18,901 nt of DNA from an uncultured bacterium (GCA_964619725.1 CAZUFC010000040.1:42616-61516), one strand, 5' to 3'; positions 5,099-18,901 are shown, counted from the first letter of the stretch. Program-made: numbers and translations. The notes: generated by a model from the letters alone, not told the origin.

Positions 5099-5869
5099 TT
5101 ATTTCCGGTCTTTTTTATTGAGAATTAGCGTCCTGAACACAAAAAATATGAAGTCCTGAAGCAGATCAGGCGCCGTTTTTCTCATGCGGGTGAGTTTTGT
5201 TCGCATTCGGTCCCATCTGGTCGGATTACCGGTCTTTGTTGCGTACAGGATCGAATCCGCCAAGCCTACGTTCTTAAAGCCATTCCGGTTAAATATAACT
5301 TCATGGGCGGCTTTTCTGACTTCGGGCCAACCGGTCATTCGGTATTTCTTTATGAACATGTGATAAGGGGAGAGACAATAGCGCATGGCGCAGGTCGTAT
5401 CATGAAAGGCTATTATGCCGCCGTCGACTACAAAAGGAGACCAGAAAAAAAAATCCGCTTTGACGGATTCGTAATCATGAGCGCCGTCAATAAATAGCAG
5501 TTCAATCGGCTTATTCCATTTCGAAACGGCTTTTTCCGACGTATGGACGATAGGTTTTACCAGATCGCTCAACCCTGCAGTATCAAGGTTTTTCGTAAAT
5601 TCCTCCAAAGTCGATTGCTGCTGCAGCTCGGTATGCAGAGAAGTCTGAGCATGAGGATCAATGGCATAGACTTTTGTTTTTTTGCCGGCTTTAGAACCTC
5701 CGGCCAGCCAGACAGTGGATTTTCCTTTCCAGGAGCCTATTTCCACTACAACGCCCCTGCCTGAGACGCTTTTCGCAGCCTGATACAGGAAGCTTCCCTC
5801 CCTGTTCGTCAACCAACCCTCGATATTCTCCGCCGAATTTTTGATTTCATCAAAATATCTTTTCTTCAT
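5099..5869 (-). CDS. Class I SAM-dependent methyltransferase (Methyltransf_24-like)
   Basis: 256 aa. Motifs GWL, VVEIGSWKGKST, VYAIDPH, LLFIDGAHDYESVKAD and GGIIAFHD. RBS AAGGAG just upstream. Confidence 0.9.
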   Translation of the reverse strand: MKKRYFDEIKNSAENIEGWLTNREGSFLYQAAKSVSGRGVVVEIGSWKGKSTVWLAGGSKAGKKTKVYAIDPHAQTSLHTELQQQSTLEEFTKNLDTAGLSDLVKPIVHTSEKAVSKWNKPIELLFIDGAHDYESVKADFFFWSPFVVDGGIIAFHDTTCAMRYCLSPYHMFIKKYRMTGWPEVRKAAHEVIFNRNGFKNVGLADSILYATKTGNPTRWDRMRTKLTRMRKTAPDLLQDFIFFVFRTLILNKKDRK

Positions 5870-6651: not shown

Positions 6652-6680
6652 TCAGGTGTCGCCCATGGAGAAACAGATAG

Positions 6681-6709
6681 TTGAGCATTGCATACAGAAT
6701 TGGTATAGT
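6681..6709 (+). promoter_or_regulatory. Sigma70-type promoter of the toxin-antitoxin cassette
   Basis: -35 TTGAGC (6681-6686), 17-nt spacer, extended -10 TGg-TATAGT (6701-6709), then RBS AAGGAGGT (6723-6730). Confidence 0.7.
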
Positions 6710-6736
6710 ATAGGCGTGTCACAAGGAGGTAACCTT

Positions 6737-6964
6737 ATGACTGAAGATGCAACGAAAGTGTTAGAGGCAGCGTTGATGTTGCCGGTGAACGAGCGGGCTT
6801 CCATCGCAGGAATGCTTTTGGAGAGTCTTGATGAAACGGTTGACGAAAAGGTGGAACAGGCTTGGTCTAAAGAAATTGCTCGGCGAATCCAGGAGATTGA
6901 TGAGGGTAAGGTTATAACCGTCCCTTGGTCAGTGGCTAGAGAACAAATCATGGGTGGAAAATAA
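6737..6964 (+). CDS. Addiction module antitoxin (TIGR02574-like), 75 aa
   Basis: ALMLPVNERASIAGMLLESL...AWSKEIARRIQEIDEGKV..PW pattern of this family. ATG 6737 follows a strong RBS, so it is preferred to the ORF-track start at 6656. Confidence 0.9.
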   Translation: MTEDATKVLEAALMLPVNERASIAGMLLESLDETVDEKVEQAWSKEIARRIQEIDEGKVITVPWSVAREQIMGGK

Positions 6965-7267
6965 TTGGCGACCGTTGAGCTTCATCCCGAGGCGATTGCT
7001 GAGGCAGCACAAGCACGGAAGTGGTACGCCGAGAGAAGTGAACGAGCGGCGGATGGTTTTATTCAAGAACTCGATCAGGCAATTGACAGAATTTCAGAAG
7101 CGCCGGAGCGATGGCCCAATTATCTTCATGGAACCCGGCGATATCTGATGCGACGCTATCCATATTTCGTTGTATATCGGGGCCCTGGAGAAAAGGTAGA
7201 AGTGGTTGCTATTGCACACGGCCGTAGGAAACCTGGCTATTGGCGACGGCGAAAGGTGCACAACTGA
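6965..7267 (+). CDS. Type II toxin, RelE/ParE superfamily
   Basis: 100 aa, TTG start immediately after the antitoxin stop. HPEAIAE...WY...PERWP...RRYLMRRYPYFVVYR...VVAIAHGRRKPGYW. Confidence 0.92.
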   Translation: MATVELHPEAIAEAAQARKWYAERSERAADGFIQELDQAIDRISEAPERWPNYLHGTRRYLMRRYPYFVVYRGPGEKVEVVAIAHGRRKPGYWRRRKVHN

Positions 7268-10500: not shown

Positions 10501-10778
10501 TCAGGCATTCCTCCGACAGTCATAATAGCAGGAATCGCGATTTTTTTAAATTACTTTTAATTTTATTAGGTCATAATTTTGAATTGTCTTCAAAAAGGAA
10601 AGGTTTCAATTCGATGTTTAATATTGTTCGAAAAGGCGTATTTCGAGGATACAGTTTTCGCAGCCTTGAATAATTGATAAGCTTTTAAAATCTGATAAAG
10701 ACAAAATACATCCGCTATTAGTTTTTTTGTTCCGATTGCGATACCGAACCGAACGGCCTGATTATCGACAGCGGCTGC

Positions 10779-10804
10779 TTTGCGACGGGCTCTGACCCCT
10801 TTCC
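10779..10804 (-). repeat. REP-like element copy downstream of rdrB
   Basis: tttgcgacgggctctgacccctttcc; near-identical to 7301-7326. Confidence 0.8.
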
Positions 10805-10885
10805 TGACACTTTTCCCAACAGCCTGATCATCCCTAAGACGGAGGAGATGATGAACGCTTGAATTGAATAGATCACTGATTTTAT

Positions 10886-13822
10886 TCAAAAACCGAACAG
10901 GTCGTCTATTCTTCGTAAAAGTTTCTGTTCGCGTCTTTTCCGGTTGATGTAGAGGCGCTCCCGATTTAAACCGGTTACGGGGAGAAAATCAATATTTTTA
11001 ACAACTTCGAATTCCGGTTCTATCTCTTCTTTTTTATGAAAAGCGCCTTCATGCAAAAATGTTTTTTCAATACTGTTATTACGCAGATAATCAATCCATT
11101 TGCGAACATTTTCCTTGTGATAGCCCTTTTTTTCCGCTGCTGCAGCCAGAAGAGCGTATTCCCGTTTGAGGCTGGTGTTGAAGATTCCAGGATTATCCGT
11201 ATTAACCACCACCTGTGTTTTTCGATTGTTTTTTTCATCCAGCCCATGAGCGTTAAACGAAAAAACGGGATGCTCCGTCAATTCGCCGAACCCGCCGATA
11301 AGATAATTTGACGAAGGACAGACCTCAATCGTCACCTCTCGATCCGCTATTTCCTGCAGGACTTTTTCTCTTATTTCATGAAAGCATTTGACCCAATCGA
11401 ATTCGAATTCTTCCCATTTCACTTTTTTCCTGGCTTCGATGTAGTATTCGACATTAAACTGGTAACGCCAAAGGTATTTGATAGCGGCAAGGGGAACGAG
11501 TCCCTCGAAAAGGTCATTCAGTCCGACTGTGGTAGCTCGCCATTCCATGTTTTCCGGAAGGGTTCTCAAGTCGCGTACGGCAGAACATAGAAACCAGTTT
11601 TTGGATTTGCCTGCGTCGCACAGTTCCAGGTTCACACTGTCGCCTTGCGACAAAAGGCAATGCCCTGTTTTAACGCACGAACGAAAGTTGCCCTGCATGG
11701 ATGCCGGACATATTCGGTTTAGGGAATATCCCTTGTGGACATCCATTGGCGAACCGCCGCAAACTAAACCTTCAGGATGAGTTCCCGCATTCCAACCCAG
11801 GTTCTCCAGAATACTGAAAAATTCCACAGGGTCCATCCATCTCATTTTCCAGGCAGCCGCCAGCAGATCGTTCAGTCCCTCAGTAGTCGGCGGAACAGTT
11901 TCATTCCAGTAAAGTTCATTAAACTCCCTGGCGATATAATTTTCCAGCCGTTTTATTTCCTCATCGCAATGGGAGCAGAAACGAAGCATGTGATGTATCC
12001 ATACCCAATTATCCAGTCGTTCTTCACGGGGCATTTGAGGATCAGTCCCTGCGGTTTTGATCCATTTTTCGGGATCGATGCCCAGGACTATGCCGTGGCC
12101 GATTCTGTCACCTGGTCTTAAATCGAGAAAATGCAACGCTTCATAAACCGCCCGCAGTCCGGAAATAGGATGATGAAACGATTCGCCGACGTGATAGGTG
12201 GCTTTCAAAGGTTCGATATCGCAACGATGAACCGTATCCGTGAATCTCCGGAATGCAAGAGGCAACGAACGGCGCAGATATCGAAAGGCAGGCGCGAATA
12301 TTTCCGGGGATGCATCCCGCTCATGACGCGCCGCATCAATCGCCAAAATTGCAGCAGCGGCGTCAGGGTCTTCTGCTCGATACTTCTCCAGGTTCAGCGC
12401 AATTTTTTTTATCTCCCGACGAAGCCGCCGGTGACGAATAACCGGCGTCCATACCGTCTGCCATTCCTCCGTCTTTTTTGGGGGTCGAGTTTGTGGAGGC
12501 ATCTTGATAAGATGAGCAACCAGTCCGAAATCTCTTCCCAACCGGTAATCCTCAGAAAACAAAGTATGATAATAAGCCTCGATCCACGAGCTTAGCGTTT
12601 CCCGTTCTGGCGTTACCCTGCCCTCAACTCTCTGTCGCCGATCATTAGTCACGGATTGTAAGATGTAATGCTGACGACTTCGGCTCCAGTTAGGCGATAA
12701 TTTTCTGGCCGGCGAATCATACCAGTCCAGAAAATTCAAAAATCCCAACCGTTTAGAATGCTGAGTCACAGCCTGATGGAAGATATTCTGAATCGCCAGA
12801 TAAGCGAAAAGAACCGGACGATACCAATGAGGCAGTTCTTTTCCATGTCTTCGCAATGTGATGAAAGCTTTAATTAAAAATTGACGCTCCTGTAGATAAA
12901 AATTGCCTGCTCCGGCTTCAGGAGAAAGAAATGCCGGCGAAAAATTTACCCCAAAAGAATACTGCCGGTGTAAATTATCGGCGATAAACATTCCAGCGGA
13001 TATGGCCAGATCATCAGTTTCTCCTGCCGCTGAGAGAACCTCAAAATGAGACTTGACCATTATCGCCCGTTGATACTTTTCAAGAATCGAATAAATGCAT
13101 GAACTGCGGAATCCCTGAAAGAGAGCGATCACAACCCCCAGCATGTGGCGCATAATGTGAATATCTTTTAACCTCTGATAAATTAGAGCGTTCAGTTGTC
13201 CCTCATCCAGTCTCCTTTTCCACTCTCTTAATTTCTTAATACTTCGTAAAGCCCTGGATTGGGTCACTAACTCGCTCCACAAATCAAGCGTAGAAGGAAC
13301 CCCGCCAAGATGAACATGGCATTCCACCATTTCCGCACGGAGAGGAAATTTCAAATATTGAGCATCCGTACGAAGATAAGGAGGCCAATCAATGAACGCA
13401 CCCTCGCTCCGCCCGTCCCTCATATTCGCAATATGCTCGGCGACACGCCAACAGGCCAATTGATCCGGTACGACCAGTAACCCAGCATCCATTAATTCAA
13501 GCATCATATCATGTTTCACGAAAGGACAATGCCCGTTCAATTTTAAATAACGCCGCGAAAGAGTAGACAATGCCAGTCCCAGAACTCCGATCGAACTGTG
13601 TCGCTCGGAAATCTCCAAAACATTCTCTAGCAGATATTCGATTTGCTCAAGCGGCATATTGGGACGCCCCAGCCCCACTCCATTCATTATTCCACGTAAT
13701 CGTTCTTTCTGACGTTTTTCATAATCGCCTGGACGCAAACTGATCAGCAATTCGTCCAATCTTAGAAAGGCTTGGCTCGATAAACATTTCAGCCAGAATT
13801 CTATGTCGGTGGAGGGTTTCAT
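10886..13822 (-). CDS. rdrB: Large adenosine-deaminase-family metallohydrolase, RADAR effector RdrB-like
   Basis: 978 aa. HxH (ECHVHLGG, H169/H171), TYHVGE (H544/E547), GDRIGHG (H576), IEVCPSSN and VNTDNPG (D876). It lies directly downstream of a large P-loop ATPase. Confidence 0.85.
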   Translation of the reverse strand: MKPSTDIEFWLKCLSSQAFLRLDELLISLRPGDYEKRQKERLRGIMNGVGLGRPNMPLEQIEYLLENVLEISERHSSIGVLGLALSTLSRRYLKLNGHCPFVKHDMMLELMDAGLLVVPDQLACWRVAEHIANMRDGRSEGAFIDWPPYLRTDAQYLKFPLRAEMVECHVHLGGVPSTLDLWSELVTQSRALRSIKKLREWKRRLDEGQLNALIYQRLKDIHIMRHMLGVVIALFQGFRSSCIYSILEKYQRAIMVKSHFEVLSAAGETDDLAISAGMFIADNLHRQYSFGVNFSPAFLSPEAGAGNFYLQERQFLIKAFITLRRHGKELPHWYRPVLFAYLAIQNIFHQAVTQHSKRLGFLNFLDWYDSPARKLSPNWSRSRQHYILQSVTNDRRQRVEGRVTPERETLSSWIEAYYHTLFSEDYRLGRDFGLVAHLIKMPPQTRPPKKTEEWQTVWTPVIRHRRLRREIKKIALNLEKYRAEDPDAAAAILAIDAARHERDASPEIFAPAFRYLRRSLPLAFRRFTDTVHRCDIEPLKATYHVGESFHHPISGLRAVYEALHFLDLRPGDRIGHGIVLGIDPEKWIKTAGTDPQMPREERLDNWVWIHHMLRFCSHCDEEIKRLENYIAREFNELYWNETVPPTTEGLNDLLAAAWKMRWMDPVEFFSILENLGWNAGTHPEGLVCGGSPMDVHKGYSLNRICPASMQGNFRSCVKTGHCLLSQGDSVNLELCDAGKSKNWFLCSAVRDLRTLPENMEWRATTVGLNDLFEGLVPLAAIKYLWRYQFNVEYYIEARKKVKWEEFEFDWVKCFHEIREKVLQEIADREVTIEVCPSSNYLIGGFGELTEHPVFSFNAHGLDEKNNRKTQVVVNTDNPGIFNTSLKREYALLAAAAEKKGYHKENVRKWIDYLRNNSIEKTFLHEGAFHKKEEIEPEFEVVKNIDFLPVTGLNRERLYINRKRREQKLLRRIDDLFGF

Positions 13823-13839
13823 TTGCTTTTTAAATAGGC

Positions 13840-16800
13840 TTATTCAGTTTTTTCTTTGGGCTGACAGCTTCTTTTAGCTTCTGTCTTATTTGTATCGACA
13901 TCCTGCGATGAATCTGATCCATTTTTTGTTTTTAGTATTTTATCGTCAATAGACCCCTTCACCGCCATGGCCAGATGATTTAAATACTTTTCAGCATCCC
14001 GGTAAGGCTTTATATCGGCCACAAGACAATTAAGCATTGCTATCAATGCTTTACGACGCTGTTCAATATCTCTGATTGCCTCACTCTGCCTATCGTTGCT
14101 TACTTCAGAATATCTGACGTCAAGCCCGCACCAGGACAATCCCATCAACTCAAGCGGATAGTATAAAGAGTGTACTTTTTTCGAAATAGTTGCATCCTTT
14201 TTTTCACATTCATCAATCGTTACTATTGATGATTCATCATCAAGGAGTATGCGCCCGCCGTCTAGTCTATCCAATGGATCTAAAGAAATCAAAGGTAAAC
14301 TTCCGAAACAAACCAACAATGCCAAATTCAAAGCCTTTTTTAAATCTCCGTTTATATGTTCAATGATCTTGTTCCACTGCCGTATTCTAAAATCCTTATT
14401 TATCCTTATCGATTTAACATGAGTGCGTTTACCAGAATCTTCTCCCGCAGCAATCATGAAGCACGCAAATTTGTTATTTCCATCTTTTCGGTATACTGTT
14501 GCATTGACGTTCTCAAATTCACCTTGGTCAGAATGCTTTTTTAAAATTTTCCGTATTTCCATGTCGTCGTCCAATGGACCGCCCCAATGTAAGAAACAAC
14601 CAATTGTAGGAAACGAGGCTAATGCTAAAAAAGTATCGCTCCATTTCCATAGGCTTTTTGTTTTGATAGCGCTCTGAAGGTATTTCAGATTCTGATAAAG
14701 GGGATGATAAGCTCCTTCTGATTCATTAGCTGCTCTAGGCGGTTTCTTGTTGACAGAACTTCTTTGCAATGAAGGTCTTTCAACGCTTCGTCCTTTTTCC
14801 TTTTTTTTCGATTTAGCTTGATTTTCTTCTTCTTTTTTCTCTTCGGGTTCTTCCTCAGCGGGTTTTTCTCCATCATTGCGACATGTGCAGTCGTCCGTAT
14901 CGAAAGTTGATTTATACTCCAACGTTTCGATCAAAACGGAATTGAGAAAATGATATATCCATCTTTGAATGATATCGCCGGCGCCCGACCATTGACCGAC
15001 ATAACTTTCCTCGTCGCCGATGTCCTCCAGAAATGTCTCGATAGTCTTTTGAATTTGATTGAAATTCGGTTTACAGCGATTTTTGGAATACCAATGACGT
15101 CCCCAATAAGCAACCCATTCAGTAACGGCTGCGCCCAGCCATTTCAATGTTTGATCCCATGCTTGTTTTCGGCATGATTCCAGATCGTTTCTATCTTGAA
15201 TCGTTATACAATTATCTTTAGAAAAACCAACACCTGGATTTGTCGCAATTTTTTTATCATCATCAATCCATTCCGGGTCAGGAAATTTATGCCATGCCAA
15301 TCCTAAACCTGCTTTGTTGTTCTTAAATAAAGGATAAAAATCCGCTGGATCAGAGGCGGCATCTATTTCTTCGGTAATTTTTTTCCAATACTCGCCCAAT
15401 TCATCATATTCATCCTTTTCCTTTGGGGGAGGCGGTGATGGCGGAGCCATACCCATTTCAAACGGAGCCCACGCTCCCGCCGTGGGTTCTAGTTCTGTTT
15501 TCAATTTTCTGTAAATTATCTTGAACAAGTCCTTTTTCCTTATTTGAGTAATATCTGTAATCTTTTCATAAATATTCGCTGCTAATCGAATAACTTCTTT
15601 GACGATACTCAAACCGTTCCAGCAATTCAAGTATGTTTGACCGCCTTCTGAAGTTGTCCAGCAATTTAATAACAGCCTAGGTAAAGCGCCGGCCAAGCGG
15701 TCGAAAAAATCTGGCGACGTGGCCATCTCAGGAATTTTCGGTATCTTTTCATTTACAAGGCGAGTTAACTTTGCTTCTTCCTCATTTAAGATGAAAAGAT
15801 CAGTTATTTCGTCTTTTTGGAATACGCCCGGCAAATATTCCGAAGACCATTTAAAGCAGGATCGATCTGCCCAATAATCTCTTTTCGGCGTTAAAAACTC
15901 ATTGCATCTGGTTCTCATTTCTTTCCTGTATCTAGTTAAATTTCTTCTTTCCGGATTTCCGAGTATTTTGCGCCATCCAGCTCTGGGAGACGGATCGTTA
16001 ATGTCCAATAGATTTTCTAAGGCTCCGGGCCGATCACATAATTTTACAACGCCAGGCTTTATATTAGCTTTTCTTGCGACCCAGGGAACCAGTCTTGCAT
16101 ATAATTGCCTCTGTGAATCCTTCAAATTAAGTTGCAGATGTCGAGCCTGCCTTGATCGTTCATCAGAAGGCAGGGACATCAAATAGTAACCTGGGACGCA
16201 CAAATCGAGTCCCAGACTGATTATGCCGGGGACACTTCTTCCATCAAGATTTGCTTCAACAGCAAATCTAAAGAATGCAAGAATCAAATTTACGTTTACA
16301 CTGTCCGTTCTGGCATCAAGACGAAGCATTGATTCATCTGACATTTCGTTAGTCAGCAGGAAATTCAATATGAATAATCCCACACGATCTTCCTTGATTA
16401 AAGCTTTCAACTCCTGTGGGGACAACTGGTTCAATTCAAGATTCCCGCGCCAGTTATGGAACATATCGATCAAAAGGTTGTTTTTTCTTTTTAATTCTTT
16501 TTGATGCTGAACCTTCCCATTATAATTACCTGACTTATTTTTATTTTTTATTTCAACAACTCGTTCTGTTTCAAGAAGACAAAAATAAATAAAACGTCTG
16601 ACGTCTCTGGGAATTAGAAAACGATAAATATTAAAAAGAAATTCCAAATCAGCATAGAAGAAGTCATCACAAGCCTTTTCGATTCTCAAGCAATCGCGTA
16701 ATACGCTGTTGAAATAATCCTTTTTAAATGCGATCACATTTTTCATTTCACTATTGCCAGTATTCTCTTGTGTTTGGTCGATAGCCCTTCTCTCATTTCG

Positions 16801-17925
16801 GGGAATACTTTCCTTTATTTTAAGAAAAATTCTATCGAAATCCATATCAATCATATCGGGAAGATAGACTCGCATATGGGGCGGCAACAATTTTTTCAGA
16901 TATTGGTGTGTTAGGTCTTCGATGAAAGAATCTTCGGAAAGAAAATGGTGAGATGTCTCCGATTTCAAATTGATAAGCCCCCGACGTAACTGGCGACTAA
17001 ATGAATTTTTTAGTGTTTGCGAATACATTTCTATATCGCCTGTCACCATTATCAGCATTTTATTGGACGTTAAATAGCGTCTCAGTGATTCCAGGACTTC
17101 CTCGCCGCGATTAAAAGACATATCGACATCATCAATTGCGATAACGGCCATTTCCTTCCCCACCAAATCAAGGTATACGTCGATAAACTCCCATAAAGCC
17201 CTTTCCAGGTTATAACCCGAACGAAATTGCATGGTTTCTTCAAGCATGCCCTCCGTATCATACTCGTTAAATGCTTTTTCCAGTCTGTTTATATTCAATG
17301 TAACAGGCAGTTGCTTTATTACCTTCGCCAGAGCCGTCCTGAATTTATCGGACTTTTCCTTCATAACATCCCGGCCCAATTGGCAGATTTTTTTATTCAG
17401 ACATTGCTGTGCTCTGTAATTAAGATCAGCGAATATAGTTGAGACAATATTATCTTTTTTCTGCATCATTGCAGGCTCGACAAGACCACAAATACTTATT
17501 TTACCGGATATTTCATCCAACTTGCTTTTCTCGGAAGCAATTCTTTTTTCGGAATTGATTTCTGTGCCCTCTCCTTCCAATTTAACGAGGCTTTCAGAAT
17601 AGTTTTTTCTATAATCCAGTTCATCCTTTTGATCCTTATCATCAAGCAACCTGATCAAACTATGCAAAAATGAGGTTTTTCCTGCACCCCTTCTTCCCAA
17701 TATCCCAAGATTCAAGTGTCGACGCCTCAGTTTCCATACCGTTTCTTCATCATCGAAGGTTTTATTTTGTTTTTCAAAACTTAATTGACTCAGCGCCTTT
17801 TCGATATGTTCGATCGCTTGTTTTATCTGGTGAATATATATTTGAGATTCGGCATCGATGGGTTGAGCATCTTTTAAGTTCGATATGTCTATGATGATGT
17901 CGTTTTTTCGTGTTAAATCGGTCAT
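13840..17925 (-). CDS. rdrA: Large P-loop (KAP/AAA+-like) ATPase, RADAR sensor RdrA-like, with long C-terminal region
   Basis: 1361 aa. Walker A GRRGAGKT (aa 77-84), Walker B VIAIDDVD (D265/D266), LESLRRYL and YLKKLLP. It ends 17 nt before the deaminase gene. RBS AAGGAG at 17936-17941. Confidence 0.82.
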   Translation of the reverse strand: MTDLTRKNDIIIDISNLKDAQPIDAESQIYIHQIKQAIEHIEKALSQLSFEKQNKTFDDEETVWKLRRRHLNLGILGRRGAGKTSFLHSLIRLLDDKDQKDELDYRKNYSESLVKLEGEGTEINSEKRIASEKSKLDEISGKISICGLVEPAMMQKKDNIVSTIFADLNYRAQQCLNKKICQLGRDVMKEKSDKFRTALAKVIKQLPVTLNINRLEKAFNEYDTEGMLEETMQFRSGYNLERALWEFIDVYLDLVGKEMAVIAIDDVDMSFNRGEEVLESLRRYLTSNKMLIMVTGDIEMYSQTLKNSFSRQLRRGLINLKSETSHHFLSEDSFIEDLTHQYLKKLLPPHMRVYLPDMIDMDFDRIFLKIKESIPRNERRAIDQTQENTGNSEMKNVIAFKKDYFNSVLRDCLRIEKACDDFFYADLEFLFNIYRFLIPRDVRRFIYFCLLETERVVEIKNKNKSGNYNGKVQHQKELKRKNNLLIDMFHNWRGNLELNQLSPQELKALIKEDRVGLFILNFLLTNEMSDESMLRLDARTDSVNVNLILAFFRFAVEANLDGRSVPGIISLGLDLCVPGYYLMSLPSDERSRQARHLQLNLKDSQRQLYARLVPWVARKANIKPGVVKLCDRPGALENLLDINDPSPRAGWRKILGNPERRNLTRYRKEMRTRCNEFLTPKRDYWADRSCFKWSSEYLPGVFQKDEITDLFILNEEEAKLTRLVNEKIPKIPEMATSPDFFDRLAGALPRLLLNCWTTSEGGQTYLNCWNGLSIVKEVIRLAANIYEKITDITQIRKKDLFKIIYRKLKTELEPTAGAWAPFEMGMAPPSPPPPKEKDEYDELGEYWKKITEEIDAASDPADFYPLFKNNKAGLGLAWHKFPDPEWIDDDKKIATNPGVGFSKDNCITIQDRNDLESCRKQAWDQTLKWLGAAVTEWVAYWGRHWYSKNRCKPNFNQIQKTIETFLEDIGDEESYVGQWSGAGDIIQRWIYHFLNSVLIETLEYKSTFDTDDCTCRNDGEKPAEEEPEEKKEEENQAKSKKKEKGRSVERPSLQRSSVNKKPPRAANESEGAYHPLYQNLKYLQSAIKTKSLWKWSDTFLALASFPTIGCFLHWGGPLDDDMEIRKILKKHSDQGEFENVNATVYRKDGNNKFACFMIAAGEDSGKRTHVKSIRINKDFRIRQWNKIIEHINGDLKKALNLALLVCFGSLPLISLDPLDRLDGGRILLDDESSIVTIDECEKKDATISKKVHSLYYPLELMGLSWCGLDVRYSEVSNDRQSEAIRDIEQRRKALIAMLNCLVADIKPYRDAEKYLNHLAMAVKGSIDDKILKTKNGSDSSQDVDTNKTEAKRSCQPKEKTE

Positions 17926-17942
17926 TTTCTTTCCGCTCCTTG

Positions 17943-18809
17943 CTAATCTCGCTTATAGGCCAGACGGCTGGCTCTGGCCGCCCCGATTAAATCCAGCTTG
18001 CTTTCTCCCATGGGCTGATCATAATCATCCAAAGTATGGAACCTGACGGTTAAGCCATTCTGAAGTTCCAACTCATCCATGATGTCCCAATACAACTTCT
18101 GCCAATCGCGTGCTTTGACCTGGAGATTCCGTAGTTTTTCATCGAATTTTTCTCCCTCTTTCGGGGCTAAAAGTTCATGCACTCCATGAGGTTTCATTAC
18201 CAGCGGATGTAAGCCTAACTCTGCGCAAACCATGCTGTAGAAGTCATGAATCCATTCTGTTATTTCAGCGATCAATGCAAATCTGCTTTCGCTGGAATCT
18301 ATTAGTTTGTTTTTCTCAAAGGATTCATGGGAGCAATCGATCAATTTCCATATTTTTTTGAGTTTTGATTTATCCAGCAAATCCTCAATTTCTATTTTTC
18401 TTGTTGGATTGCCCGTTTTCAATATTTCTCTAGTCTTCTCCCAGGACTTTTCGACCAATTCAAATAATTGTAATACTTCTTTTACCGCTTCAATGGACTC
18501 TTTATATTTTTCAGTGCCGCTCAATTCCTTTTTAATTTTGCTGCATTTTTGTTTCCTCAGTTTACTTTCAACTTCGTAAGTAAAATTATACGCATAAACT
18601 TTGGTAAATCCTTTGAATAGTTCATCCCTATTTCCAACTTCCAGCACCATTGACTGGTCTTGAAGGACTCGGCTCTTTATTTTTGTTAATATGTCACTCA
18701 AGCATTCATAATTACTTTCTCCCAGCCTTTTTTTTACTTTTTCAGACTCGAAATACAGACTCTTATTCATCACATCGACCAGTATTTCTTTTAAATCAGT
18801 TCGATTCAA
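17943..18809 (-). CDS. Hypothetical soluble, probably alpha-helical protein; first gene of the RADAR-like operon
   Basis: 288-aa ORF in AT-rich DNA, ending 17 nt before rdrA on the same strand. K/E-rich with no hydrophobic segment. The start is uncertain (TTG 18809, or GTG/ATG about 12-13 codons downstream). An in-frame stop about 14 codons upstream shows the gene is complete in the window. Confidence 0.8.
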   Translation of the reverse strand: MNRTDLKEILVDVMNKSLYFESEKVKKRLGESNYECLSDILTKIKSRVLQDQSMVLEVGNRDELFKGFTKVYAYNFTYEVESKLRKQKCSKIKKELSGTEKYKESIEAVKEVLQLFELVEKSWEKTREILKTGNPTRKIEIEDLLDKSKLKKIWKLIDCSHESFEKNKLIDSSESRFALIAEITEWIHDFYSMVCAELGLHPLVMKPHGVHELLAPKEGEKFDEKLRNLQVKARDWQKLYWDIMDELELQNGLTVRFHTLDDYDQPMGESKLDLIGAARASRLAYKRD

Positions 18810-18901
18810 AATTTTCTCGATACTTGTTTTCGGCGCTTTTTTCGTATTTCAGACTTCGTTAAGGCAAAATTTAAAGTCATTTAAATTAAATTAGTTGAGC
18901 A

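Follow-up and report, generated by a model that had tools for sequence, protein, structure and literature searches.

A candidate RADAR-type three-gene locus in which an upstream KaiC-like gene is probably interrupted by a 244-nucleotide repeat

The stretch of DNA analyzed here (GCA_964619725.1, CAZUFC010000040.1:42616-61516; 18,901 nucleotides [nt] from an uncultured bacterium, hereafter called the window) carries three co-oriented open reading frames (ORFs) of 288, 1361, and 978 amino acids (aa) on its minus strand. Gaps of 17 nt each (17926-17942 and 13823-13839) separate them, and the last base of the window is the final base of contig C40 in a 9.17-megabase (Mb) assembly of 344 contigs. 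The two large genes resemble those for RdrA and RdrB, the ATPase and the adenosine deaminase of the RADAR antiphage system, and the 288-aa ORF upstream of them appears to be the 3' part of a large gene, encoding a KaiC-like ATPase, that a 244-nt repeat has divided. An earlier note, made from the sequence of the window, had described a complete three-gene RADAR-like operon with an accessory gene of a different kind. Its ORFs, gaps, and coordinates were confirmed, and matches in PADLOC, NCBIfam, and the PDB bear out its assignment of the two large genes. The small accessory gene and the completeness of the operon did not hold, since the body of the KaiC-like gene lies on another contig, C105.

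The 978-aa protein matches the NCBIfam RdrB model (NF041744) with 181.3 bits (E = 3.6e-53), with residues 83 to 919 aligning to positions 69 to 844 of 850. It scores 126.6 bits against the PADLOC RdrB model and is matched by the solved RdrB structures 8fnv and 8fnw (E = 5e-24). In a profile comparison (hhalign), nine members of its clade align with six canonical RdrB sequences from residues 80 to 921, corresponding to 72 to 819 of 838 (E = 3e-68), and the protein is accordingly predicted to be collinear with RdrB over its whole length. Six residues (H169, H171, H544, E547, H576, and D876) are invariant among the nine RdrB-like sequences. The histidine tetrad H169/H171/H544/H576 and the catalytic E547 align to H152/H154/H498/H530 and E501 of Escherichia coli RdrB, which are described as its zinc-binding histidines and catalytic glutamate (PMC9994260). 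An insert at about residues 686 to 738 is specific to the clade and not present in canonical RdrB, and it contains three conserved cysteines (C716, C722, and C735).

Similarity to RdrA is more restricted in the 1361-aa protein. The NCBIfam RdrA model (NF041743) matches residues 127 to 358 only (113.5 bits, E = 9.9e-33), the solved RdrA structures 8fnt and 8hr7 match residues 118 to 362 (E = 5e-16), and the PADLOC RdrA model gives 64.1 bits. In the hhalign comparison of the clade profile with canonical RdrA, residues 7 to 574 align with positions 5 to 476 of 894 (E = 6e-34), suggesting that RdrA homology is confined to the N-terminal ~575 residues. End-to-end alignment with ordinary RADAR proteins, a possibility raised in the earlier note, is therefore found for the RdrB-like protein and not for its partner. 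The core of the ATPase is well conserved: the Walker A motif (GILGxRGAGKT) holds K83, and G77, K83, and T84, as well as D265/D266 of Walker B and G296/D297 of sensor 1, are invariant among nine sequences. K83 and the pair H169/H171 are the residues that the earlier note had named. From there to the C terminus, ~790 residues follow that show conservation in the clade alone and are without matches elsewhere; among published RdrA proteins, the alpha-helical C-terminal lobe is described as very variable in sequence (PMC9994260). An AAGGAG Shine-Dalgarno sequence precedes the ATG of the gene.

Relatives of both proteins are few. Searches of 5.8 billion proteins (word-filtered, with 8000 candidates scored) returned 8 strong relatives of the RdrA-like protein (1188 to 1382 aa, 29 to 33% identity) and 2 weak ones, and for the RdrB-like protein 11 strong, 5 intermediate, and 4 canonical-like relatives. 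A quick IQ-TREE phylogeny of 27 RdrB-like rows (fragments P0024 and P0025 omitted; P0015 and the L004 ORF being one gene with differing starts) places the protein of the window, together with those of all three KaiC-linked loci described below, in a 13-row clade with a Shimodaira-Hasegawa-like approximate likelihood ratio test (SH-aLRT) value of 100. This clade stands apart from the canonical clade (100) and from an intermediate clade (100) of 977- to 1076-aa proteins, in agreement with the divergent subtype that the earlier note had supposed. When one genome from each of 185,579 species was scanned, the long RdrA-like gene was present at 3 loci (L004, L005, and L006) out of 19 pattern matches. 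Within the phylum of the window, it was found in 1 of 14 genomes, which is the source genome itself, and the order is represented by that one genome. Among viral contigs scanned with the RdrB-like profile, 51 pattern stretches matched and none was confirmed. The window locus and its relatives thus appear to form a rare, deep branch of RADAR-type systems.

Directly upstream of the RdrA-like gene, and co-oriented with it, each of the three genomic loci carries a further large ORF (1062 aa in L004, 1122 aa in L005, and 1009 aa in L006). The spacing varies from a 133-nt gap in L004 and a 33-nt gap in L006 to a 4-nt overlap in L005, and in all three the RdrB-like gene lies downstream of the RdrA-like gene, the same order as in the window. 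The upstream ORFs match the Pfam KaiC family (PF06745) in two or three stretches each, with 56.9 to 86.8 bits at a cut-off of 26.6. Each protein has two Walker A motifs, that of the second domain reading GPTGCAKT, indicating that these are double KaiC/RecA-like P-loop ATPases with two predicted tandem RecA-fold domains. They do not reach the level of KaiC equivalogs (NCBIfam PRK09302, 27.6 to 46.5 bits versus a cut-off of 408), and PADLOC assigns them no family beyond a weak P-loop match. The top Foldseek matches of a low-confidence model of one relative, P0035, are KaiC chains (E = 3e-11), and an ESM Atlas search with its N-terminal 300 residues gave no usable match.

A profile search of 1.84 billion representatives yielded about 10 full-length members of the close KaiC-like family, a number similar to the 9 of the RdrA-like family. 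Four further close KaiC-like relatives are tied to RdrA- or RdrB-like relatives by locus tags or by contigs of identical size: GY847_32140, GY847_32135, and GY847_32125 lie together on a 13377-nt contig, and the other KaiC-like relatives are on contigs of 46147, 21441, and 85396 nt, equal in size to those of RdrA- or RdrB-like relatives. The KaiC-like proteins in relatives are about 1000 to 1450 aa long, and in 9 of the 9 full-length close relatives a C-terminal tail with the motif GISIRLHxLDDYDxPMGExKL is fused to the ATPase. Four canonical metagenomic RADAR loci (L007, L008, L010, and L011) contain no KaiC-like match by phmmer. The order KaiC-like, RdrA-like, RdrB-like is thus the apparent conserved architecture in the relatives. 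On the 13377-nt contig (P0020, P0004, and P0039), the RdrB-like protein has just 769 aa; between the RdrB- and RdrA-like genes lies GY847_32130, and the deaminase gene may be in two parts there as well. Beyond the close family, a second tier of about 130 representatives (P0050 to P0185) consists of double-KaiC proteins of about 1150 to 1350 aa related at 110 to 260 bits to the KaiC-like protein of the system; Pfam finds only KaiC in these proteins, and PADLOC finds nothing beyond a weak P-loop match.

The tail of these KaiC-like proteins is what the 288-aa ORF encodes. Its C-terminal 50 to 160 residues match the extreme C termini of the KaiC-like proteins by BLASTP (E = 2e-19 for L004, 2e-14 for L005, and 4e-14 for L006), positions 960 to 1066 of the KaiC-like profile (A4) match the same region of the 301-aa open frame (E = 2e-18), and the fragment encodes the tail sequence VRFHTLDDYDQPMGESKL. 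As a protein in its own right, the 288-aa ORF has no relative of similar length among the 5.8 billion proteins and no family in Pfam, PADLOC, or NCBIfam (best PADLOC E value, 0.0044, to a methyltransferase model), and its TTG start lacks a Shine-Dalgarno sequence. The frame remains open for 13 codons past this TTG, up to position 18848, and is closed by a TGA (18851-18849) that is the outermost TCA of the repeat element read on the opposite strand. An open frame extending exactly to the repeat boundary is as expected for a recent interruption. The 288-aa ORF is thus best read as the 3' end of a large gene for a KaiC-like ATPase, and not as a separate accessory gene.

The assembly contains 13 strong copies of the repeat stretch in which the window ends, many of them at contig ends. 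Alignment of the copies defines an element of 243 to 244 nt with an imperfect terminal inverted repeat, and all seven copies with both flanks visible have a 3-nt target duplication. Only short ORFs (up to 81 aa) occur in and between two copies on contig C218, and the element, too small for a transposase, is a non-autonomous one resembling a miniature inverted-repeat transposable element (MITE). Copies occur on C218 (two in inverted orientation, about 510 nt apart), C77, C18, C8, C185, C113, C271, and others, at least 13 in all, and the element breaks many contigs. In a comparison of contigs from four runs of one microbial-mat study, the summed contig depth in run X1 rises from 7.5 to 37 to 221 over the last ~55 nt of the window, where several different flanks are joined.

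The missing body of the gene is found at another contig end. Within the source genome, the KaiC-like profile detects one strong gene, on C105 (profile positions 128 to 877, E = 8e-148 and 2e-63); the other matches are the window tail (960 to 1066) and one weak match elsewhere (E = 0.0033). The C105 ORF is 1236 aa long, has a GGGAG Shine-Dalgarno sequence at its start, lacks the tail motif, and ends 32 nt before the contig end. Its stop lies inside the repeat, the gene's own sequence (...YVLN) being followed by seven element-encoded residues and the stop codon. The element has one and the same orientation at the two contig ends, the last 56 nt of C105 being its positions of about 244 to 189 and the end of C40 its positions 53 to 1. 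The trinucleotide ATT flanks the repeat on both contigs, and on either contig this triplet is an Asn codon of the open frame. By arithmetic, the uninterrupted KaiC-like gene would comprise 1229 + 12 + 288 = 1529 codons. A tandem duplication in the N-terminal part of this protein is only weakly hinted at (E = 0.015 and 0.002). Upstream of the gene, C105 carries housekeeping genes (ThiI, FBPase, and 2-thiouracil desulfurase).

The guanine-plus-cytosine (GC) content is 37.3% in the KaiC-like part, 38.4% in the tail part, and 39.2% in the RdrA-like gene, compared to 45.5 to 47.6% in both flanks, which fits a single acquired operon. The RdrB-like gene, at 46.5%, is near the flanks, versus 37 to 39% across 13840-18809. 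Just downstream of it lies an ATPase gene with AAA_14 and DUF4143 domains, which was not found beside the system in L004 to L006. A 99-aa ORF (10590-10889, minus strand), which shares 4 nt with the RdrB-like stop, has no family match and no counterpart in nine related loci and is probably spurious. Promoter and terminator scans gave results no better than shuffled sequences. Coordinates of all features are collected in Table 1.

Table 1. Features of the window and of related loci
Feature	Position	Strand	Remarks
RdrB-like adenosine deaminase gene, 978 aa	10886-13822	-	ATG start
RdrA-like AAA+ ATPase gene, 1361 aa	13840-17925	-	ATG start
288-aa ORF	17943-18809	-	TTG start
Putative 3' fragment of KaiC-like gene	17943-18848	-	301 open codons from repeat boundary; holds the 288-aa ORF
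Target-site duplication	18846-18848		ATT on the plus strand, AAT (Asn codon) on the gene strand
First 53 nt of 244-nt MITE-like repeat (TCAGAC...CTCTGA)	18849-18901	+	Element positions 1-53; interrupted by contig end
AAA_14 + DUF4143 ATPase gene, 435 aa	9193-10500	-	
Type II toxin-antitoxin pair	6656-7267	+	Unstab_antitox (102 aa), then directly ParE-family toxin (100 aa)
Methyltransf_24 gene, full length	5099-5869	-	On one side of the toxin-antitoxin pair
Short Methyltransf_24 gene, 101 aa	7400-7705	-	On the other side of the pair; probably truncated
L004			Unclassified bacterium, metagenome-assembled genome (MAG)
L005			Candidatus Anammoxibacter MAG
L006			Pseudomonadota MAG
L015 RADAR-like variant	L015:73-6293		A co-oriented 430-aa ORF comes next
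L016 RADAR-like variant	L016:5002-11959		A co-oriented 314-aa ORF comes next

Taken together, these observations make it quite probable that the locus belongs to a rare, deep-branching RADAR-type system of three genes, whose KaiC-like gene has been interrupted here by the 244-nt MITE-like repeat. The ancestral locus would have consisted of a KaiC-like gene of about 1529 codons, an enlarged RdrA-like gene, and an RdrB-like gene, and as a result of the insertion C105 would now end with a 1236-aa ORF lacking the tail and C40 with the 288-aa ORF. RADAR has been solved for E. coli and Streptococcus suis (PDB 8fnt, 8fnv, 8fnw, and 8hr7; Duncan-Lowey et al. 2023, PMC9994260). As described there, it is a two-protein system in which a heptameric RdrA ring docks by its crown on dodecameric RdrB, and RdrB converts ATP and dATP to ITP and dITP on infection, with both active sites required. 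By analogy, phage infection would lead the RdrA-like ring to activate the RdrB-like enzyme, which would deaminate ATP and dATP to ITP and dITP, and infection would be aborted. The conserved third gene suggests that the clade may not be a two-protein system. Because its first gene is broken, this copy of the system is probably either impaired or no longer properly regulated.

Several points weigh against this reading. Both large proteins fall far below the NCBIfam equivalog cut-offs (181.3 versus 800 bits for RdrB and 113.5 versus 600 bits for RdrA), and past residue 574 the RdrA-like protein has no detectable profile similarity to canonical RdrA by hhalign. AlphaFold2 models were poor for both the KaiC-like relative P0035 (10-row alignment; mean predicted local distance difference test score [pLDDT], 55.3; predicted template modeling score [pTM], 0.38) and the RdrA-like relative P0011 (9 rows; pLDDT, 50.7; pTM, 0.36), so the claimed architecture rests on sequence; the C-terminal part of the P0011 model is helical, with pLDDT there of about 30 to 50. 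Gene context was read directly for three relatives and was deduced for the other four from contig sizes and locus tags. About 135 nt of the repeat between C105 and C40 are unassembled, the 3-nt flanks would agree by chance in 1 of 64 cases, and the contigs of the four runs, which drop rare variants, include no uninterrupted allele and none bridging C105 and C40. The RdrA-like and RdrB-like genes are intact, such that function may persist in spite of the insertion. The part assigned to the KaiC-like ATPase is conjecture: it might serve as an additional sensor or regulator upstream of RdrA and RdrB, acting on them possibly via its tail and the enlarged C terminus of the RdrA-like protein. A more far-reaching version, which is doubtful but conceivable, would make the trio a three-component nucleotide-poisoning immune machine in which a KaiC-type double ring with a variable N-terminal sensor gates or times RdrA-RdrB through the LDDYDxPMG tail, the ~130 second-tier proteins being sensors of other, as yet unrecognized defense systems.

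The same two contig ends could be explained by functional fission, with the 1236-aa KaiC-like body and the 288-aa tail serving as separate subunits in a normally working four-gene operon that the repeat insertion created or fixed. The downstream genes with all their catalytic residues present, the possible starts in the fragment (TTG at 18809 and an ATG at codon 14), and, weakly, given that contigs drop rare variants, the lack of an uninterrupted allele among the contigs of four runs are all compatible with fission. However, the tail is fused in every full-length relative (9 of 9), the fragment frame is open exactly up to the repeat boundary, and neither candidate start has a Shine-Dalgarno sequence, as opposed to the GGGAG of the KaiC-like gene and the AAGGAG of the RdrA-like gene. 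No stand-alone protein of such kind and length was found among the 5.8 billion, and fission seems unlikely. It is far less probable that the C105 gene comes from another locus and that the window tail is the remnant of a second, lost copy, such that the adjacency of the two ends is coincidental. With at least 13 repeat copies, many contigs end in the repeat, and no read or contig joins the ends of C105 and C40. Nevertheless, the 9.17-Mb assembly has a single close KaiC-like gene and a single tail, which are complementary in profile positions (128 to 877 versus 960 to 1066), and orientation, element coordinates, the 3-nt flank, and reading frame are all consistent with a C105-C40 junction. The low GC content common to both parts and a gene order that agrees with that of all three relatives also favor interruption of one gene.

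A self-contained operon of a small accessory protein, RdrA, and RdrB, as the earlier note had it, would account for three co-oriented ORFs with 17-nt gaps and for a 288-aa protein matching nothing in Pfam, PADLOC, or NCBIfam. It becomes very improbable in view of the homology between the C-terminal part of that protein and the tail of large KaiC-like proteins, the contig end within the repeat only 92 nt upstream of the ORF, and the presence of the missing gene body at another contig end, that of C105. The least probable explanation is that the genes have nothing to do with immunity and encode a housekeeping complex that deaminates purine nucleotides and includes chaperone-like ATPases. Apart from the upstream neighbors on C105 (ThiI, FBPase, and 2-thiouracil desulfurase), which are in keeping with such a role, the evidence points the other way: the system is very rare and patchy (3 loci, from different phyla, in one genome each of 185,579 species and, within its own phylum, 1 of 14 genomes), its GC content is atypical, its homology is specifically to RdrA and RdrB, and its surroundings include a ParE toxin-antitoxin pair as well as an AAA_14/DUF4143 ATPase.

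The sensing of infection by RADAR and the activation of RdrB by RdrA are still debated in the field, the C-terminal lobe of RdrA being a proposed sensor in the published structural account (PMC9994260). A clade with a large KaiC-type ATPase in all loci seen, together with a putatively enlarged RdrA lobe, would offer a separable and testable control layer, and its main interest lies in this conserved third component, less so in the interrupted copy. It would also extend predicted RADAR-like ATP deamination to Planctomycetota, to Pseudomonadota MAGs, and to a little-sampled phylum of microbial mats. For annotation, the locus is a warning that a small, seemingly accessory gene of no known family, when it sits where a contig stops, can be what is left of a large gene interrupted by a repeat that the assembler did not cross. 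The earlier note had suspected an undescribed variant, and no published description of the KaiC-like, RdrA-like, RdrB-like architecture was found: no paper in the library searched combines KaiC with RdrA or RdrB, or with adenosine deaminase and antiphage defense, although earlier lists of RADAR loci (PMC9994260 Table S1, 270 systems) might include members of the clade.

Among known and related systems, two RADAR-like variants, L015 (1151 and 911 aa) and L016 (1068 and 933 aa), likewise pair an enlarged RdrA-like protein with an RdrB-like protein. Unlike the clade of the window, they contain no KaiC-like gene by phmmer (on the L015 contig, 72 nt precede the RdrA-like gene, such that an upstream gene would be invisible there), and their RdrB proteins are not members of the 13-row clade. 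Greater RdrA length alone is therefore not special to the clade. An additional gene joined to the RdrA-RdrB core is also known from RADAR loci with RdrC or RdrD, accessory genes that Gao et al. in 2020 are said to have described as encoding small membrane or SLATT-type proteins; the additional gene here differs in lying upstream and in encoding a predicted cytoplasmic double RecA-fold ATPase of 1000 to 1500 aa. With the circadian KaiC (PDB 4o0m and others), this ATPase shares two tandem RecA-like P-loop domains (PF06745), but it has an extra N-terminal region of 200 to 550 aa and a C-terminal region of 200 aa with the LDDYDxPMG tail.

The closest resemblance is to canonical RADAR itself, with which the window shares a co-oriented ATPase gene followed by a deaminase gene, an RdrA-type core (Walker A, Walker B, and sensor 1), and collinearity with RdrB. 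Identity of the clade to canonical RdrA and RdrB is only about 21 to 24% in profile alignments, and, as the earlier note had supposed, both proteins are longer than the characterized ones (1361 and 978 aa, versus 947 aa for RdrA and 798 to 799 aa for RdrB in the solved E. coli chains). After the RdrA-aligned part, ~790 aa follow here, compared to ~420 remaining model positions in the canonical profile, and the RdrB-like protein has its cysteine-containing insert. The clade differs further from canonical RADAR in the conserved, large KaiC-like ATPase gene upstream of the pair.

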